From NCBI GenBank assembly GCA_037142835.1, contig JBAWZW010000001.1, positions 4,592-68,591 of the forward strand: a stretch of DNA of 64,000 bases. Direction: 5' to 3'. Under the pieces are notes generated by a model. That model did no database searches. It was not told where the DNA came from and was given only the letters and a program-made list of their open reading frames with translations. Below are positions 16,481 through 61,442 of this stretch, one piece after another (the stretch's first letter is position 1; the number at the start of each line of letters is the position of its first letter). The DNA is from Verrucomicrobiota bacterium (GTDB lineage: Bacteria > Verrucomicrobiota > Verrucomicrobiia > Chthoniobacterales > Chthoniobacteraceae). The position numbers were made by a program, and so were the translations under genes.

Positions 16481-19045
16481 TCAATTCTCAATCGGCAAGA
16501 GGGACGTCTCCACTGAAAAAGTCAGGCTAAAAGCAGCTCCCGGACCGGGCTCGATGACCGCCGTCCCACCGAGCTGAAGGGCGAGATCGGAGACCAGTTG
16601 ATGTCCCAATGAATGCCCGCGCTTTTCATCAAAGTCGGCGGGCAGCCCGATCCCGTTGTCCCTAACTCCAATCTGGAACTCTTGGGGATTCTTCCCTTTC
16701 TGCAGGGTGATCCGAACCTCACCTGGCCGATCATTGGGAAAGCCGTGCTTCAGGCAATTCGAGAGCAACTCGTTCATAAATAGCCCGCAGGAAATCGCCT
16801 GATCCATCGGGGCATCAACCGCACACACCTCAAGATGCAATGTCACTCTGCTGGACGAATCCACCAGGCTCCGAAAGGACTCGGTCGCAAGTTTTTTTAA
16901 ATAGTCACCCAAATCCACTTTGGCAAAAGTTCCAGAGCGATATAGCAATTCATGCAAAAGAGACATCGAACGAATCCTTCCCTGCATATCCTGCAAGGCA
17001 ACTTTGGTCTCCAAATTGACACAGCGTCCCGTTTCAAGCCGAAGCAAACTGTAGATGATCTGCAGGTTATTTTTTACCCGATGATGCACCTCTTTGAGAA
17101 GGGCGACCTTGTCCCGTACCGAAGCTTGAAGCTCAAGCTCAGCACGAAGACGACCAGCGAGTTCCTCAGTGAGCTGCTTGTTCGTCCCCGTCAAACTTTG
17201 TCGCGATTGATACAGTCCTTCCCTCGCTCCAGCGAGCCCCTCAGCCGCCCGACCAACCTCCGCTTGCAACCGGTTGAAATTGATCGCCATATCCCCAACT
17301 TCGTCCCTCGAATAAACCTTCACTGGCACGGTATCAAACTCTGCGTGCGCACCATCAAGATCACCCGCCGCCAAGGCCTGCATCGCTTTGGTAAAATCTT
17401 TCAAAGTGCCCGCAACCAGAAGATTCGCCGCCTTCGAAACCTCAACCGCGGAGTGAGCAATCATCCCCGGAAGAATTAACCCCACCGCAATCGTCAAAAG
17501 CGCAACAACCACAAAAATGTCCTGAAGGAGAGAAATCAACGCGCTGTTTTCGGTAGGAACATTGCCCACCGCGATCAGATAACCGCCAGCGTCGAGCACC
17601 AGAACCAAAAGCATCGCCCCCGTGAGCTTCAGGTGGAGGGTTCGGGCGATTCCCGGCAACCCCGCTTTCCTCCGATCCATAAACTTCCGCCAAGCGTAAA
17701 GCGCTGCCCCAGAGTACGCAAAAGAGATGCCAATCAGCACCGTCGTTAAACCAAACTGCTCGAAGCCGAGGATGGCCGTCAAACCCCACGCACCCGCCGC
17801 AAGCAGTCCCAGCCAGATCGTCCCCCGCGGCGCACGATAAGGGCGCGCAAGGGTGGGTTCGTTGCGGCGCAGGAGCCAGACCGCCACGCTCGGAAGGGCG
17901 ATCCCGATTAGGTAGGTCAGATTGGCTGCGGCGATCAGCCAGATGGGATTGCCAATCCACAAAAAGACGATTGCCATCACCCCAGTGGAGACGGTGGCGA
18001 CCCACGGGGCATCCGTCTTCGACCGCTTCGCCAGCGACTCGGGAAGTAACCCATCCTCAGCAAGCTGCGCAAGGGTTCTCGCCGCTCCAGCCAAGGGCGC
18101 CAAACAACCGTGGAGCATGTTAAAGATCATGAACCACGCCGCCGCCGCCTTCGCCGAAGCCCCAAAAAGCGGAGCGAAAGTGGGCCCAAGGACGTCGGCA
18201 AGATCTTTGCCAAGTTCCTCAGGTCCAAGTGCACCCAGCCAAATAATCGGCAGAATGATAAAATAGAGCGAAGCCAGACCAGCACTCGCAAAAACCGCGC
18301 GCGGAACATTCCGGTTGGGATCGATGGTTTCACCAACATGCGAAGTGGCCTGCTCAAAGGCGGGTGCCGCGAAGCCAATCAAATAGAGCCCAGCCATCAC
18401 GCTGGTGACTTGGCCAAACCAACCAGGAAAGGGCACGGTCAAATGAAAGCTAAAGGCCTGATGCCAATCCACCAAACCATTGGTCATCGGAAGAATCGCC
18501 GAGCAAAAAGCCAGCGCAGCCGCCGCCGTCGCCACGGGCATCGCAAGGCGCATCACCCATTTGACCCCGCATAAATTAACCGCCGCAAAAAGAATCACGA
18601 TCCCCGAAGCCAACACCTTCGGTGCGTAATCAGGCATGACTGGCAGGCACCAGTTAATCAACGCCGTCGAGGCCAGAGTCGCAGTCAACCCACACGTTGG
18701 CACCCATCCCCACCAATAACAAACCCCCGTCAGGTTCGCCAAAACTGGACTGTAAGGACGAAAAGCCTCCGCACATGTCGCGGCAATTCCCCCAACCCGG
18801 TTGGGATACATCAAAATCAGTTCCGTCCATCCTGGCGTCGCCGCCCAACTCAAAAGCAACCCAATCGCCAAGAGGACCACCGCAGCACTCCCTTGTCCCG
18901 GAATCGCCCCTTGCCCGATAAAAAGTGCCCCGATCAGAAAGAGACTTTGATTGATTCCCCCCATCGCCACCGCCGTGGTTCCAAACCACCCAATTGTTCG
19001 AGGATGAAGCAACGATGGGGCGGTGGAGGCGGAAGATGATTGCAT
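16481..19045 (-). CDS. APC-family amino-acid permease fused to HAMP + HisKA_2 + HATPase_c kinase
   Basis: About 450 aa of polytopic APC-like sequence (AFEQATSHVGETIDPNRNVPRA, RTLAQLAEDGLLP, RPYRAP), two more TMs, HAMP (DEVGDMAINFNRL), EVHHRVKNNLQII, NELLSNCLKHG, DNGIGLP and SLG. One uninterrupted ORF. Confidence 0.9.
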   Translation of the reverse strand: MQSSSASTAPSLLHPRTIGWFGTTAVAMGGINQSLFLIGALFIGQGAIPGQGSAAVVLLAIGLLLSWAATPGWTELILMYPNRVGGIAATCAEAFRPYSPVLANLTGVCYWWGWVPTCGLTATLASTALINWCLPVMPDYAPKVLASGIVILFAAVNLCGVKWVMRLAMPVATAAAALAFCSAILPMTNGLVDWHQAFSFHLTVPFPGWFGQVTSVMAGLYLIGFAAPAFEQATSHVGETIDPNRNVPRAVFASAGLASLYFIILPIIWLGALGPEELGKDLADVLGPTFAPLFGASAKAAAAWFMIFNMLHGCLAPLAGAARTLAQLAEDGLLPESLAKRSKTDAPWVATVSTGVMAIVFLWIGNPIWLIAAANLTYLIGIALPSVAVWLLRRNEPTLARPYRAPRGTIWLGLLAAGAWGLTAILGFEQFGLTTVLIGISFAYSGAALYAWRKFMDRRKAGLPGIARTLHLKLTGAMLLVLVLDAGGYLIAVGNVPTENSALISLLQDIFVVVALLTIAVGLILPGMIAHSAVEVSKAANLLVAGTLKDFTKAMQALAAGDLDGAHAEFDTVPVKVYSRDEVGDMAINFNRLQAEVGRAAEGLAGAREGLYQSRQSLTGTNKQLTEELAGRLRAELELQASVRDKVALLKEVHHRVKNNLQIIYSLLRLETGRCVNLETKVALQDMQGRIRSMSLLHELLYRSGTFAKVDLGDYLKKLATESFRSLVDSSSRVTLHLEVCAVDAPMDQAISCGLFMNELLSNCLKHGFPNDRPGEVRITLQKGKNPQEFQIGVRDNGIGLPADFDEKRGHSLGHQLVSDLALQLGGTAVIEPGPGAAFSLTFSVETSLLPIEN

Positions 19046-19207: not shown

Positions 19208-19236
19208 TTGACGCCAATCCACACCCATCCTATTTT
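19208..19236 (+). promoter_or_regulatory. Sigma70-like promoter of the riboswitch operon
   Basis: TTGACG-N17-TATTTT, 7 nt upstream of the aptamer. Confidence 0.6.
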
Positions 19237-19243
19237 CATATCA

Positions 19244-19369
19244 CTTTCATCAAGAGTGACCGAGGGACTGGCCCAGTGAAGTCACGGCAACCGCCTAATG
19301 CGTAAGCGTTAGGGACCAGGTGCCAAATCCAGCCGCAAACGCGCAAGCGCCCGCGGAAAAGATGAGAAG
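19244..19369 (+). promoter_or_regulatory. SAM-I (S-box) riboswitch aptamer
   Basis: ctttcATCAAGAGtgaccGAGGGACTGGCCCagtGAAgtcacGGCAACC...GGTGCCAAATCC...GAAAAGATGAgaag matches the SAM-I consensus, with P1 tttcatc/gatgaga. Confidence 0.93.
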
Positions 19370-19397
19370 AGATTTTCGAAAACCATCGAAAATCTTT
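19370..19397 (+). terminator. Expression-platform hairpin after the SAM-I aptamer
   Basis: AGATTTTCGA-aaacca-TCGAAAATCT followed by TT; the U-tract is weak. Confidence 0.5.
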
Positions 19398-19448
19398 GTC
19401 CTCGTCGCCATGCAATCGCTCAGATTCTTGATGAAAACATCACGACTT

Positions 19449-20708
19449 ATGGACAAAACATCGCCCTTCTTCATCAATCTCAAATGCCGCGAATGCGGCC
19501 GAACTTATCCAAAGCAAGCCATTCATGTCTGCGACTTCGACTTCGGCCCCCTCGAAGCCGCCTACGACTACGATGCCATTCGATCCGTACTCACTCGCGC
19601 AGTCATCGAAAGTCGCCCACAAACCATGTGGCGCTATCGCGAACTTCTCCCCATCGATGGCGAACCCACCGTCGGCACCCAAGTCGGCTTCACCCCCTTG
19701 GTCAAAGCAGATCGTTTAGCCAAAGCCCTCGGCATTCGCGAACTCTATGTCAAAAATGACACCGTAAACTACCCCACCCTTTCCTTTAAAGATCGGGTCG
19801 TTTCCGTCGCCCTCAGCCGAGCTTGCGAACTCGGATTCAAAGTAGTCGCCTGCGCCTCCACCGGAAACCTCGCCAACTCCGTCGCCGCCAACGCCGCCAG
19901 CGCAGGCTTAAAAAGCTATGTCCTCATCCCCGCCGATCTCGAACAAGGCAAAGTCCTCGGCTCGCTCGTCTACGGAACCAACGTCATCTCCATTCACGGT
20001 GCCTACGACCAAGTCAACCGCCTCTGCTCAGAAATCGCGGGAAAATATGGCTGGGGCTTCGTCAATATCAATCTCCGCCCTTATTATGCCGAAGGCTCAA
20101 AATCCATGGGCTACGAAATCTGTGAGCAACTCGGCTGGCGCATCCCCACCCACACCGTCGCCCCAATGGCCTCTGGCTCTTTACTCACCAAAATCCACAA
20201 AGCCTATGGCGAATTCGCGCGCCTCGGCTTAGTCGAAAATACCCCTTTCTCCGTCTATGGTGCCCAAGCAACCGGTTGCGCTCCCATCGCCCACGCCATG
20301 AAGCTCGGAACCGATATCGTCAAACCTGTGCCCAAACCCGAAACCATCGTAAAATCCCTCGCCATCGGCACGCCCGCCGACGGCTATTATGCGATCCACG
20401 CCATGCGCCAGACCTCAGGCACCGCAGAAGATTGCACCGACGAAGAGGTCGTCGAGGGCATCCGCCTGCTCGCCGAATGCGAAGGCATTTTCTCAGAAAC
20501 TGCCGGCGGTGTCACCGTCTCCTGCGCGAAAAAATTGATCGAAACTGGAAAAATTCCCCGCGATGGCAGCGCCGTTCTCTGCATCACAGGCCACGGACTA
20601 AAAACCCAAGAAGCGATTATCGGAAAGTGTGGAACGCCTCGCATCATCAAGCCCAGCCTCCGAGAATTTGAGGAGCAAGTTTATCATAAAGACTCCGTCC
20701 TCGCTTGA
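19449..20708 (+). CDS. Threonine-synthase-like PLP enzyme, probably MetM-type O-phosphohomoserine sulfhydrylase
   Basis: N-terminal CxxC (CRECG), PTLSFKDR PLP-lysine motif, ASTGN, EGSK and ETAGG. SAM riboswitch upstream and sulfur carrier downstream. Alternative start at 19431. Confidence 0.85.
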   Translation: MDKTSPFFINLKCRECGRTYPKQAIHVCDFDFGPLEAAYDYDAIRSVLTRAVIESRPQTMWRYRELLPIDGEPTVGTQVGFTPLVKADRLAKALGIRELYVKNDTVNYPTLSFKDRVVSVALSRACELGFKVVACASTGNLANSVAANAASAGLKSYVLIPADLEQGKVLGSLVYGTNVISIHGAYDQVNRLCSEIAGKYGWGFVNINLRPYYAEGSKSMGYEICEQLGWRIPTHTVAPMASGSLLTKIHKAYGEFARLGLVENTPFSVYGAQATGCAPIAHAMKLGTDIVKPVPKPETIVKSLAIGTPADGYYAIHAMRQTSGTAEDCTDEEVVEGIRLLAECEGIFSETAGGVTVSCAKKLIETGKIPRDGSAVLCITGHGLKTQEAIIGKCGTPRIIKPSLREFEEQVYHKDSVLA

Positions 20709-20761
20709 CCCTTTCCTCACACCCGAGTCAAATCCCTGCCCCTTCACTCTCCATCATCCCA

Positions 20762-21034
20762 ATGCCTACCGTCCTCATTCCTACTCCACTCCGCAGGCTA
20801 ACCAATGACCTCGAAGAGGTCAGCGCCGCGGGAGCCGATATCGGCACCTTAATCGATAACCTCGATAAAGCCTTCCCCGGATTAAAAGATCGCGTCTGCG
20901 ATGAATCGGGAAATGTTCGCCGCTTCGTTAATATCTACGTCAACGGGGAAGACATTCGCTTTTTGCAAGAGAAAGCCACCCCCGTCAACGAAAACGACGA
21001 AATCAGCATCGTTCCCGCCATCGCCGGAGGCTAA
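20762..21034 (+). CDS. ThiS/MoaD-family ubiquitin-like sulfur carrier
   Basis: VLIPTPLRRLT, RRFVNIYVNGEDIRF and C-terminal IVPAIAGG. Confidence 0.93.
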   Translation: MPTVLIPTPLRRLTNDLEEVSAAGADIGTLIDNLDKAFPGLKDRVCDESGNVRRFVNIYVNGEDIRFLQEKATPVNENDEISIVPAIAGG

Positions 21035-21093
21035 TCTGCCCATCTTCGCCCAACCCATCCCAGCCAAGTTTACTATTTCATCCTCAGCATTTT

Positions 21094-21339
21094 ATGAACG
21101 AAAAACAACGCCTCTGGCTGATGTTCCCAACTAAACTCGTCACCCGACCAGTCCTTTGGGAACTAGGTCAAAAATTTCCCGTGATCACCAACATTCGCCA
21201 AACCAGCGTGACCGATGAAATTGGCATCGTCTCCCTCTCCCTTGAAGGCGAACGAGAAGAAATCAAACGATCCATTGCTTGGCTGGAAGAACTCGGAATC
21301 AAGGTGGAACCAGTAGAAATGAACACCATCGAAGGCTAG
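21094..21339 (+). CDS. Stand-alone NIL-domain protein
   Basis: LWLMFPTKLVTRPVLWELGQKFPVITNIRQ...GIVSLSLEG...WLEELGIKVE follows the NIL/ACT-like pattern. Confidence 0.8.
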   Translation: MNEKQRLWLMFPTKLVTRPVLWELGQKFPVITNIRQTSVTDEIGIVSLSLEGEREEIKRSIAWLEELGIKVEPVEMNTIEG

Positions 21340-21470: not shown

Positions 21471-21944
21471 GTGACCACGCCTCAGAAATATTCCCGCCTC
21501 TCTCTCCTCGGTCAGACTGCGAACTTCCCTGAAGAACCCAAGTCCACCACCCTCGAAACTTTCCAAAACGAAAGCGCCAAGCGCGACTACTGGATCACTT
21601 TCGACTGCGGGGAGTTCACTTCCATGTGCCCAGTCACAGGCCAACCAGACTTCGCAAAAATCCGCATCGAATATATTCCCGACAAGCTTTGTATCGAAAC
21701 CAAGTCTCTGAAATTTTACCTCGCCTCCTTCCGAAATACCCGAGCGTTCAACGAGTCGATCGTCAACCAAATCCTCGATGATCTCGTCACCGCTTGCCAA
21801 CCCCGCCACGCTTTCGTGCATGGCGAATTCGCCCCGCGTGGCGGAATCGGCGTAACTGTCGACGCTGAGTACCCCTCCCCAACCTCACCCTCCCCCACTT
21901 CCAAACGCCTCAAACCAAAATCCATCAAATCCTCCCGCCCATGA
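21471..21944 (+). CDS. queF: NADPH-dependent preQ0 reductase (short type)
   Basis: EFTSMCPVTGQPDF, ETKSLKFY and PRGG; GTG start. Confidence 0.93.
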   Translation: MTTPQKYSRLSLLGQTANFPEEPKSTTLETFQNESAKRDYWITFDCGEFTSMCPVTGQPDFAKIRIEYIPDKLCIETKSLKFYLASFRNTRAFNESIVNQILDDLVTACQPRHAFVHGEFAPRGGIGVTVDAEYPSPTSPSPTSKRLKPKSIKSSRP

Positions 21945-22639
21945 GCCGGGCGAAGGTCGTTGCTTTAGTAAGCGGGGGAATGGATTCCGTGGTCGCACTC
22001 TATCACGCACACCTCGAAAGTGATGTCGTCGCCGCCGTCAGCTTCGACTACGGCTCCAAACATAATTCCCTCGAAATTCCCTTCGCAAAACTCCACGCCG
22101 ATCGCCTGAGCATCCCCCACCAAGTCATCCATCTGCCCTTTATCAATCAACTTTTCTCCTCTGACCTCCTGCAAAAAGGCGGAGAAATTCCCGACGGCCA
22201 TTACGAAGAACTTTCCATGAAACAGACGGTCGTGCCCTTTCGCAACGGCATCCTTCTTTCCATCGCCGCTGGCTACGCCGAAAGCCTCGGAGCCACAGGT
22301 CTGATCATCGCCGCTCACTCCGGCGACCATGCAATCTACCCAGATTGCCGCGAGGACTTTATGCAAGCCATGGGCGATGCCCTCAGCCTCGGCACCTACG
22401 CCAAAATCGCCCTCCTCCGCCCCTTGATTCATCTCTCCAAAGCCCAAATCGCCACCCTTGGACAGACTCTCGGCGTCAACTTTTCTCAGACTTGGTCCTG
22501 CTATAAAGGACAGGAAATTCATTGTGGCACTTGCGGAACCTGTGTCGAGCGACGCGAAGCCTTCACCCTCGCCGGTCTAAATGATCCCACCGCCTACGCA
22601 AGCACCGCGCCCCTCCCCAGTAAACCACCCGAAACCTGA
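21941..22639 (+). CDS. queC: 7-cyano-7-deazaguanine synthase
   Basis: SGGMDS, VPFRN, YPDCR and WSCY...HCGTCGTC. Confidence 0.95.
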   Translation: MSRAKVVALVSGGMDSVVALYHAHLESDVVAAVSFDYGSKHNSLEIPFAKLHADRLSIPHQVIHLPFINQLFSSDLLQKGGEIPDGHYEELSMKQTVVPFRNGILLSIAAGYAESLGATGLIIAAHSGDHAIYPDCREDFMQAMGDALSLGTYAKIALLRPLIHLSKAQIATLGQTLGVNFSQTWSCYKGQEIHCGTCGTCVERREAFTLAGLNDPTAYASTAPLPSKPPET

Positions 22640-22642
22640 CCA

Positions 22643-23338
22643 ATGCTCATTTCGGAAATCTTCTACTCCATTCAAGGAGAAGGCGAATTGACCGGCGTTC
22701 CATCGGTGTTTATCCGAACTTCCGGATGCAATCTGCGGTGTCGATGGTGCGACACGCCCTACGCCTCTTGGCGCCCTGAGGGAACAGAGATGAGTGTCGA
22801 CAAAATCCTTGAGGAGGTTCTCCGCTTCCCGTCCTCTCACGTGGTTCTCACTGGTGGCGAACCGATGGTCGCCAAAGAGATCCACCTCCTCGCCAGTCGA
22901 CTCCGAGAAAACAAAAAACATCTCACCATCGAAACCGCAGGAACCATCGCCCCCCAAGGCATCGCCTGCGATCTCGCCTCACTTAGCCCGAAACTTCGCA
23001 ACTCCCAACCACAGGAAGGAGAAATCGAAAAGGGATGGCGAGATCGACACGAGATCAACCGACTCCAACCAGAAATTCTTCGCCAATGGATCGATAATTA
23101 CCATTTTCAGCTCAAATTTGTGGTTGAGCAAGCGGACGATTTGCCCGAACTGGAAGACCTCATTCGCAACATCGGCACCCCCATTCATCCCCATCAAGTT
23201 CAATTGATGCCTCAAGGCGTGGACCTAACCACCCTTCGATCACGCGACGCCTTCCTCATCGCTCTCTGTAAAGAAAAGGGCTACCGATATTGTCAACGTC
23301 TCCATGTCGAACTTTTCGGCAATACCCGGGGCACTTAA
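22643..23338 (+). CDS. queE: 7-carboxy-7-deazaguanine synthase (radical SAM)
   Basis: EIFYSIQGEG, GCNLRCRWCDT, TGGEP, IETAG and SPK. Confidence 0.95.
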   Translation: MLISEIFYSIQGEGELTGVPSVFIRTSGCNLRCRWCDTPYASWRPEGTEMSVDKILEEVLRFPSSHVVLTGGEPMVAKEIHLLASRLRENKKHLTIETAGTIAPQGIACDLASLSPKLRNSQPQEGEIEKGWRDRHEINRLQPEILRQWIDNYHFQLKFVVEQADDLPELEDLIRNIGTPIHPHQVQLMPQGVDLTTLRSRDAFLIALCKEKGYRYCQRLHVELFGNTRGT

Positions 23339-23354
23339 CCCTCACTCCTCTTCC

Positions 23355-23810
23355 GTGCCGTATCGCATCTGTAAAACCTTCGAAATTGAAAACGGGCACA
23401 TGCTATCCAAGCACCCCGATAAATGTCGCTTCCCCCATGGGCATTCTCGAAAAGTCGAGTTCACCCTCCAATCACCCGAACTCGACTCCCATCAAATGGT
23501 CTGCGACTTCAAAGTCATCAAGCTACTCATGGGCGAGTTTCTCGATCAATATGATCACGCCATGTGCATCAACACGGATGATCCGATTTATCCCACTTTG
23601 AAAGCGGCTTACGGTGATCGGGTCATTGGCTTTCATCAAGCCGACCCCACCACCGAACTCCTCGCGAAAACCATCTACGACTTTTTCAAAGTCCGCCTCG
23701 ACGAGTATCAAACTCATCCCTCCCCTCAATACCCCATTCAAAAAAATTTGGCAGTCATCAAGGTCCGCCTCTGGGAAACCAGTAGCTCTTGGGCAGAGTA
23801 TTCAGAATAA
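23355..23810 (+). CDS. queD: 6-carboxytetrahydropterin synthase
   Basis: GHML, CRFPHGHS, DHA, PTTE and LWET; GTG start inferred. Confidence 0.92.
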   Translation: MPYRICKTFEIENGHMLSKHPDKCRFPHGHSRKVEFTLQSPELDSHQMVCDFKVIKLLMGEFLDQYDHAMCINTDDPIYPTLKAAYGDRVIGFHQADPTTELLAKTIYDFFKVRLDEYQTHPSPQYPIQKNLAVIKVRLWETSSSWAEYSE

Positions 23811-39294: not shown

Positions 39295-39299
39295 CTTGG

Positions 39300-39718
39300 T
39301 GGCTGGCGATAAGCCGAATTCTGTCTCGGTTCGGTCACCCAAACCGCGTGATGATCATTTCTCTCAGTCTGCCGAAGCAGACCGCCGCGCTCCTCTCGAA
39401 ACGCTGGTGCGACTAATACCCAGAAGGTGCCACGCTTTCGCGTGGCGGGCAGGCGACCCACACTTCCTGTTTTGTCTTGCACCGCATGGGGTTTTTCGTG
39501 CCCCGACGCTTGCGCATCGGGCGGTGGGCTCTTACCCCGCCTTTTCACCCTAACCTCCGACTTTCACCAGAGGCGGTTTATTTTCTGTGACACTTTCCGT
39601 TGCACACGGCTTGGGCCGTGTACCCCCGCGCATTCTACGCGGCATGCTGCCTTGTGGTGTTCGGACTTTCCTCAAGGAAAAAGCTTACGCATTCCCCCAG
39701 CGATCATCTGCCAGCCAG
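39300..39718 (-). ncRNA. rnpB: RNase P RNA (type A)
   Basis: The - strand carries GAGGAAAGTCCGAACACC, AGTGTCACAGAAA, GGTGAAAAGGCGGGGTAAGAGCCCACC, GGTGCAAGAC and GACAGAATTCGGCTTAT. The termini CTGGCTGGC/GCCAGCCA pair. Confidence 0.96.
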
Positions 39719-61368: not shown

Positions 61369-61442
61369 GCACTCGTAGCTCAATTGGATAGAGCATCGGT
61401 CTTCGAAACCGAGGGTTGTGGGTTCAAGCCCCGCCGAGTGCA
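61369..61442 (+). tRNA. tRNA-Arg(TCG)
   Basis: GCACTCG TAGCTCAATTGGATAGAGC A TCGGT CTTCGAA ACCGA GGGTT GTGGG TTCAAGC CCCGC CGAGTGC A. Confidence 0.95.

Follow-up and report, generated by a model that had tools for sequence, protein, structure and literature searches.

A route from O-phosphohomoserine to homocysteine that runs through the enzyme MetM and the sulfur carrier MetO, together with MoeZ and Mec, has been described in Streptomyces albulus, according to the account of Hasebe et al. (2024, Appl Environ Microbiol 90:e0124724) given in GapMind 2026 (PMC13759103). GapMind 2026 treats this pathway as four proteins, among which there is no NIL-domain protein, assigns Mec a role in carrier maturation, and points out that MetM is often misannotated as threonine synthase. 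As far as papers citing this work relate, an S-adenosylmethionine (SAM) riboswitch lies upstream of S. albulus metM, and a sulfur-carrier gene lies beside the Microcystis homologue. The Microcystis study noted members of the same clade in cyanobacteria and reported ambiguous in vitro activities (PMC12172450). Here, we analyzed a locus of this kind in a 64,000-nucleotide stretch of the genome of a Verrucomicrobiota bacterium (assembly GCA_037142835.1, contig JBAWZW010000001.1, positions 4,592 to 68,591; the whole stretch is referred to as the window). In it, a SAM-I riboswitch is followed by genes for an enzyme resembling threonine synthase (ThrC), for a small sulfur carrier, and for a stand-alone NIL-domain protein, all on the + strand. 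The evidence makes it highly probable that they form an operon (metM-metO-NIL) that is repressed by SAM and serves thiocarboxylate-dependent homocysteine synthesis in a soil-type verrucomicrobium. The core of this system is not new, since the route has been published and included in GapMind 2026 and the family is widespread. The operon in the window adds a member to the published pathway, as a three-gene variant in which NIL is an extra gene outside the published scheme.

Compared with the Streptomyces MetM/MetO system, the window has the same SAM-I riboswitch, ThrC-fold enzyme, and Gly-Gly-ended ThiS-fold carrier, the clade and the active-site signature of the enzyme are shared, and a MoeZ-type activating enzyme (E1) is encoded elsewhere in the genome. 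The differences are the NIL gene, which none of four Streptomyces loci has, the Mec/JAMM gene, which we did not find in the assembly, and the Verrucomicrobiota host. The CysM/CysO/Mec+/MoeZ system of Mycobacterium tuberculosis has the same kind of carrier, an E1 with a rhodanese domain, and a phosphorylated hydroxy-amino acid as the acceptor, whereas the window enzyme has the threonine synthase fold, a four-carbon substrate, homocysteine as the predicted product, and control by SAM. Another protein-thiocarboxylate synthesis of homocysteine, by HcyS/HcyF/HcyD/MetY of Wolinella succinogenes, was reportedly described by Krishnamoorthy and Begley in 2011. There, as would be the case here, homocysteine receives its sulfur from a carrier thiocarboxylate, but the acceptor is O-acetylhomoserine, the enzyme is of the MetY type (fold type I), and a metalloprotease is required. 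MetX/MetA, MetY, and JAMM were all missing from the assembly studied here. In the independent DUF39 pathway, which makes homocysteine from aspartate semialdehyde, a NIL/ferredoxin protein is an essential partner (MA1821/MA1822; DvMF_1464/DvMF_0262) (PMC5764234). The window NIL protein, in contrast, has no ferredoxin domain and stands beside another enzyme with another predicted substrate.

The metM-like gene (19449..20708, +) encodes a pyridoxal 5'-phosphate (PLP) enzyme of 419 amino acids (PF00291, 4e-63), predicted to be an O-phosphohomoserine-dependent homocysteine synthase, and every named homologue examined is labeled threonine synthase in the databases. The window enzyme scored above the cut-off of the threonine synthase model TIGR00260 (272.8 bits against 167.1), although it lacks the threonine synthase residues at three active-site positions (see below). 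It was 52% identical over 408 amino acids to a Streptomyces orthologue with SAM-I/MetO context, while its identity to the canonical ThrC of its own genome was 38%. The Streptomyces orthologues came from four Actinomycetota genomes (8 to 10 Mb, ca. 70% G+C), assigned to this genus through the names of 82 to 93% identical proteins, and in all four loci SAM-I is followed by the enzyme and then by a carrier ending in Gly-Gly. A phylogeny of 163 proteins, built by maximum likelihood, grouped all 81 ThrC paralogues with a linked carrier gene, the window gene and the four Streptomyces genes among them, in one clade with a Shimodaira-Hasegawa-like approximate likelihood ratio (SH-aLRT) support of 98. 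This clade holds 110 of the entries, and 15 canonical Verrucomicrobiota ThrCs, the copy of the same genome among them, were placed outside it. Thus, the phylogeny proposed in an earlier note on this DNA, written from the sequence alone, joins the window enzyme to the Streptomyces MetM orthologues and not to the canonical ThrCs.

We then mapped the active-site alignment onto Thermus thermophilus ThrC, numbering residues from the Met at 19449. The PLP lysine is retained in the clade, and in the window enzyme the clade signature consists of Lys114 (Schiff base), Leu141, Asn208, Arg210, Tyr213, and Ser217. In all 104 clade members aligned, the STGN-T motif has become STGN-L and NSxNPxRxEGQK has become NxNLRPYYAEGSK, so that the arginine aligned with T. 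thermophilus Arg160 is a tyrosine, a new arginine appears three residues earlier, and the glutamine preceding the conserved lysine is a serine. The window positions aligned with T. thermophilus Thr88, Ser155, and Arg160 are Leu141, Asn208, and Tyr213, while canonical ThrCs have T/A/S, S/T, and R, respectively. We take these three T. thermophilus residues to be the phosphate-site residues that steer water to the beta carbon, a role reportedly treated by Omi in 2003 and by Murakawa in 2011. Judging from the alignment, the remodeled phosphate site would fit gamma-replacement by a bulky nucleophile, and the window enzyme is probably of the MetM type rather than a ThrC. At the N terminus, there is also a zinc-ribbon-like motif (CxxC...CxxD), in which the fourth ligand position, residue 31, is Asp instead of Cys, as in 21 of the 104 clade members.

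The rest of the pathway was sought in the assembly (3.68 Mb in 456 contigs, 95.7% complete) of this organism, which the names of close homologues assign to the order Chthoniobacterales. The window gene is not its sole thrC: a second, canonical copy, which the earlier note had proposed to look for together with an absence of metA and metX, is located on contig C20 (12727-13935) and reached 335 bits with TIGR00260, compared to 273 for the window gene. Neither metX nor metA was found in the 95.7%-complete assembly. The homoserine kinase gene thrB is present (contig C89), so that O-phosphohomoserine can be made, and a full-length MetH is encoded on contig C9, leaving homocysteine synthesis as the missing step in the methionine pathway of the genome. 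The earlier note had also placed the activating MoeB/ThiF enzyme outside the window, and a single MoeB/MoeZ-type E1, with a ThiF domain and a C-terminal rhodanese domain, is indeed encoded on contig C275 (548 and 506 bits to the MoeB and MoeZ models, both below the strict cut-offs). We infer that this E1 acts on the window carrier. Given that MoaD/MoaE and ThiS/ThiG are also present in the genome, it is probably shared among carriers. A separate CysK/CysM-like gene was found on contig C307. The sole Cys/Met-PLP family gene of the genome, on contig C3, was closest to methionine gamma-lyase and below all NCBIfam cut-offs. Its neighbors in a cluster (C3:28966-32968), judged by eye from the translations, are a BCCT-type transporter and a gene resembling an FAD oxidase, a setting in which a methylated amine or sulfur compound may be degraded. 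We rejected this enzyme as an alternative homocysteine synthase on the grounds of its low scores, its catabolic-looking neighbors, and the lack of an acyl-homoserine source.

The carrier gene (metO-like; 20762..21034, +) begins 53 nucleotides downstream of the enzyme gene and encodes 90 amino acids ending in PAIAGG (PF02597, 1.1e-16). It was 52% identical to a Streptomyces MetO orthologue, its best solved relative was M. tuberculosis CysO (3dwg_C, 2.2e-18), and a search with a hidden Markov model (HMM) of the family detected no other carrier of its type in the assembly. The ThiS/MoaD fold, the free C-terminal Gly-Gly, and the MoeZ-type E1 in the genome are those of a MetO/CysO-type system. A Mec/JAMM hydrolase gave no match in the assembly, either with Pfam PF14464 (Prok-JAB) or with an HMM derived from the JAMM genes that related clusters contain. 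Since the Gly-Gly end would not need trimming, Mec should be dispensable for maturation here, and the claim of the earlier note that no trimming protease is needed agrees with both the carrier terminus and the missing gene.

In order to see how the locus compares with its relatives, we scanned one genome per species, which gave 80 named loci at 57 to 86% identity in Verrucomicrobiota, Kiritimatiellota, Planctomycetota, Thermodesulfobacteriota, Nitrospirota, Nitrospinota, Cyanobacteriota, Actinomycetota, Acidobacteriota, Methylomirabilota, and Omnitrophota. The enzyme was present in most sampled cyanobacteria, as well as in Nitrospirota and Planctomycetota, and in the Actinomycetota sample 161 of 401 genomes (40%) matched at an E value of ≤1e-90. 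The carrier gene was adjacent to the enzyme gene in 98 of 103 loci, in the same order and across about a dozen phyla, an arrangement far beyond chance. A SAM-I riboswitch was found upstream in 36 of these loci, a NIL domain in 30 (fused to the carrier in 8), a ThiF-type E1 nearby in 26, and a JAMM gene nearby in 14. The elements listed in the earlier note (SAM-I, a PLP fold-II enzyme, a Gly-Gly-ended carrier, and an 81-amino-acid NIL protein) are all in place, and the succession of enzyme and carrier is a conserved one. Two low-G+C Actinomycetota metagenome-assembled genomes showed a different arrangement (L056:6229-7296 and L103), with the carrier fused directly via its Gly-Gly to a ThiF-type adenylyltransferase and a separate NIL gene following.

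Among 151 Verrucomicrobiota genomes, the enzyme score was bimodal, with 8 genomes at ≥612 bits and the rest at ≤220. All 8 enzyme-positive genomes also carry a canonical ThrC, and in 7 of them both MetX and MetA were missing, while MetX (≥229 bits) or MetA was present in 141 to 142 of the 143 enzyme-negative genomes. This complementarity was strong (Fisher P of ca. 2e-10), although the value is uncorrected for phylogeny and, since the eight positive genomes belong to only four families, reflects few independent events. In other phyla, where MetX was the gene searched, a clear MetX was detected in only 6 of 50 enzyme-carrying genomes. A closed reduced genome of the same order (G090; 915,884 bp) provides a minimal case. 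It keeps MetM (451567-452946, -), the adjacent MetO carrier, a MoeZ-like E1, and a canonical ThrC, while our searches found no molybdenum cofactor (Moco) genes, NIL, JAMM, or SAM-I in it, only fragments of thiG, and a loss of most thiamine genes. Retention in such a genome is evidence that the E1, the carrier, and the enzyme form the functional core, and both NIL and JAMM must be dispensable there. Together with the second thrC, the clade, and the active-site changes, the MetX/MetA complementarity supports the view of the earlier note that the gene would be mistaken for thrC and belongs to the methionine pathway. The MetM-type assignment in a phylum distant from Streptomyces is likewise supported, but the distance of the phylum carries less weight than the note implied, because the family is widespread and the misannotation is already covered in GapMind 2026.

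Control by SAM is the other indication of a methionine role. The SAM-I aptamer (19244..19368, +) matched Rfam RF00162 with 73.4 bits (E value, 2.7e-15; gathering score, 44.4 bits) over the full model (1-108), co-oriented with and upstream of the predicted methionine-pathway gene. It was the sole SAM-I match in the 3.68-Mb assembly (nhmmer with a profile from 15 SAM-I copies). The same riboswitch precedes the orthologous gene in 9 of 11 Verrucomicrobiota loci, 7 of 9 Planctomycetota loci, and all 4 Streptomyces loci, as well as in Kiritimatiellota and Acidobacteriota. A candidate promoter (TTGACG-17 nt-TATTTT; 19208..19236, +), found by a sigma-70-like consensus scan with 9 of 12 matches, ends 8 nucleotides before the riboswitch. 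The putative expression platform (19369..19456, +) starts with a 10-bp A/U-rich hairpin (19370-19395) followed by UUUGU, a weak terminator at best, at the position where two relatives (L027 and L031) have textbook intrinsic terminators. Folding of the whole leader as a single sequence gave two mutually exclusive states. In the unconstrained fold, P1 is open and its two strands are engaged elsewhere, the 5' one in 11 perfect pairs at 19426-19436 and the 3' one at CUCGUC (19401-19406), leaving the AUG at 19449 accessible. When P1 is closed, the segment 19396-19407 binds the start-codon region (19443-19456) instead of the 3' strand, which occludes this AUG. On this folding, the leader would behave as the expected OFF switch. 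The metM-like frame opens with three in-frame ATGs (19410, 19431, and 19449). Gene callers start at 19431 (425 amino acids), but homologue lengths favor 19449 (419 amino acids, as in most homologues), which we consider the most likely start. A separate methionine-codon leader peptide was rejected, since the start of the metM-like frame offers only these three ATGs, which are unconserved in relatives.

Taken as a pathway, homoserine kinase would provide O-phosphohomoserine, and the MoeZ-like enzyme would adenylate the Gly-Gly end of the carrier and convert it into a thiocarboxylate. The MetM-type enzyme would then eliminate phosphate from O-phosphohomoserine on PLP and attach the carrier sulfur to the gamma carbon, rather than water to the beta carbon, yielding homocysteine, which MetH would methylate to methionine. 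The canonical ThrC would keep making threonine from the same O-phosphohomoserine. At high SAM levels, SAM-I would close and switch the operon off, probably by the terminator-like hairpin and/or the pairing around the start codon.

Several observations weigh against this pathway. In vitro, the Microcystis member of the same clade was reported to behave as a threonine synthase/deaminase, and sulfide led to no more than one unassigned peak (PMC12172450). Our connection to the characterized S. albulus MetM (UniProt A0A059WBP2) is an indirect one, by way of Streptomyces orthologues recognized from their names and gene neighborhoods. Should the thioester between carrier and homocysteine convert to an amide, as happens in CysO/HcyS systems, the product would have to be released by something other than JAMM. 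The assembly is fragmented into 456 contigs, so that absences from it are not absolute, and one enzyme-positive Verrucomicrobiota genome (G005) also has MetX. Finally, neither MetE nor MetH was detectable in the reduced genome G090 (phmmer and tblastn), which might supply a host with homocysteine or contain a methionine synthase that escaped recognition.

With these points in mind, we considered who delivers the sulfur and what is made with it. The enzyme could sulfhydrylate O-phosphohomoserine with free sulfide, with the carrier and NIL being needed only at low sulfide or in some other process and not as obligatory donors. Use of sulfide is common among related PLP enzymes, no JAMM hydrolase was found in this genome that could free a product bound as an amide, and 5 of the 103 loci have no adjacent carrier. 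We nevertheless regard this as improbable, given the carrier in all the other loci across so many phyla, its persistence beside the enzyme, with a MoeZ-like E1 also kept, in the 0.92-Mb genome despite the loss of Moco and most thiamine genes, the use of a thiocarboxylate in the published Streptomyces system, and the lack of clear homocysteine when the Microcystis enzyme was supplied with Na2S (PMC12172450). That the gene is simply a second threonine synthase isozyme (as in its annotation, "thrC 2") beside an unrelated carrier and NIL is less probable still. Its score above the TIGR00260 cut-off, the label of all its named homologues, and the weak threonine synthase and threonine deaminase activities of the Microcystis homologue in vitro (PMC12172450) are what an isozyme would show, but it would then be controlled by SAM rather than by threonine or isoleucine, in a genome with a better-scoring canonical ThrC. 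Its separate clade, the Leu and Tyr at the Thr88 and Arg160 positions throughout that clade, and a distribution that complements MetX/MetA and not ThrC also speak against it.

The product might also be a different one, such as cysteine from O-phosphoserine (as in CysM/CysO), cysteate, or a thio-amino acid destined for secondary metabolism. CysO is the best match of the carrier, a CysM-like gene occurs in the same cluster in several other phyla, and cysteate synthase is among the ThrC homologues. However, cysteate synthase identity was ruled out by a score of 63 bits against a cut-off of 325, the CysK/CysM-like gene on C307 is a separate one, SAM-I points to methionine, the step that this genome misses is that of homocysteine, and no biosynthetic gene cluster was seen around the operon in the window. 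We give such a product the smallest chance of all, marginally below that of the isozyme, and retain thiocarboxylate-dependent homocysteine synthesis as by far the most probable function of the operon.

The third gene (21094..21339, +), 59 nucleotides downstream of the carrier, encodes a stand-alone NIL-domain protein of 81 amino acids (PF09383, 2.7e-10; 40.4 bits against a cut-off of 24), a putative accessory component. The AlphaFold2 model, from a 29-sequence alignment, had a predicted local distance difference test (pLDDT) score of 89 and a predicted template modeling (pTM) score of 0.79, and its top Foldseek matches in the PDB were the methionine-binding C2 domains of the methionine importer ATPase MetN, with template modeling (TM) scores of 0.77 to 0.81, root mean square deviations of 1.4 to 2.2 Å, and 29 to 32% identity (best match, 3dhw_C, TM 0.81 and 1.4 Å; 3tuz_H was also matched). 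The model superposes on the E. coli MetN C2 (NIL) domain (PDB 3dhw, 3dhx, and 3tuz) and the "NI" motif is conserved, whereas the window protein stands alone, or is fused to the carrier in relatives, and is not attached to an ABC ATPase. The TNIR-A motif was nearly invariant (29 to 31 of 32 NIL domains), and Asn33 aligns with MetN Asn295, which we take to be the residue needed for methionine trans-inhibition. There is no cysteine in the window protein or in 24 of the 32 NIL domains, and none is conserved, which rules out a persulfide relay. A stand-in for the missing JAMM hydrolase is also unlikely, given that both are missing from the 0.92-Mb relative.

NIL accompanies the system in 7 of 11 Verrucomicrobiota loci, all 7 Nitrospirota loci, and 5 of 6 loci of Thermodesulfobacteriota and allies, and is absent from the 32 cyanobacterial and the 4 Streptomyces loci. 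In the eight fusion loci (L033, L034, L035, L038, L040, L042, L044, and L052), NIL follows in frame 3 to about 20 residues behind the carrier Gly-Gly, downstream of the MetM-like gene, and seven of them encode a JAMM protease. Most of these loci also encode a ThiF-type E1 and a CysM-like enzyme, with TusA-like genes in L035, L042, and L044. The model of one fusion (7-sequence alignment) had two confident domains, a pTM of 0.52, no sign of a fixed carrier-NIL interface, and a pLDDT of <50 at the Gly-Gly junction, which suggests that the junction is flexible and exposed. A Nitrospinaceae locus (L100:9433-10041) has two tandem NIL domains in one protein, ca. 3 kb downstream of the MetM-MetO pair. 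Among solved structures, the T. thermophilus "MoaD related protein" (PDB 1v8c; 168 amino acids), a candidate for a carrier-NIL fusion, continues for about 75 residues after its carrier-domain Gly-Gly, but its sequence similarity to the fusions covers only the carrier part and about 11 residues past the Gly-Gly.

These features are compatible with an accessory part in a regulatory or adaptor role. By analogy with the MetN C2 domain, the likeliest form of it, which we propose tentatively and at somewhat less than even chances, would be a subunit that binds methionine or homocysteine and acts on MetM or MetO as a regulator or adaptor. It is more doubtful whether NIL is a true third subunit of MetM/MetO, that is, a methionine or homocysteine sensor that works at the protein level by gating either the carrier or the enzyme.

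Around the operon, a row of queF, queC, radical-SAM (queE-like), and PTPS (queD-like) genes, unrelated to it, directly follows NIL (21471-23810, +); no terminator was detected between the NIL gene and this row, and the spacer appeared unstructured. Upstream, on the opposite strand, the operon adjoins a transporter-kinase fusion (16481-19045, -), in which a single 854-amino-acid open reading frame combines a full amino-acid permease (PF13520) with HAMP, HisKA_2, and HATPase_c domains. The window also contains a bacterial class A RNase P RNA (39296-39717, -; 203 bits) and a tRNA gene (61369-61442, +).

The recurrence of NIL, including its fusions with the carrier, points to a component missing from the published four-protein scheme. 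If NIL does gate the system, the point where O-phosphohomoserine is divided between methionine and threonine synthesis would be subject to rapid feedback on top of the SAM riboswitch. For the carrier-NIL fusions, if this holds, a ligand-bound NIL could control cleavage after the Gly-Gly and with it the release of active carrier, like a ubiquitin-fusion precursor under metabolite control. For genome interpretation, organisms that rely on a MetM-type enzyme look like methionine auxotrophs in automated reconstructions owing to the threonine synthase label, and the changes to STGNL and NxNLRPYYAEGSK provide a simple marker to separate MetM from ThrC. Together, the complementarity with MetX/MetA and the wide distribution indicate that the route described in Streptomyces in 2024 is a major pathway of homocysteine synthesis and not a curiosity.

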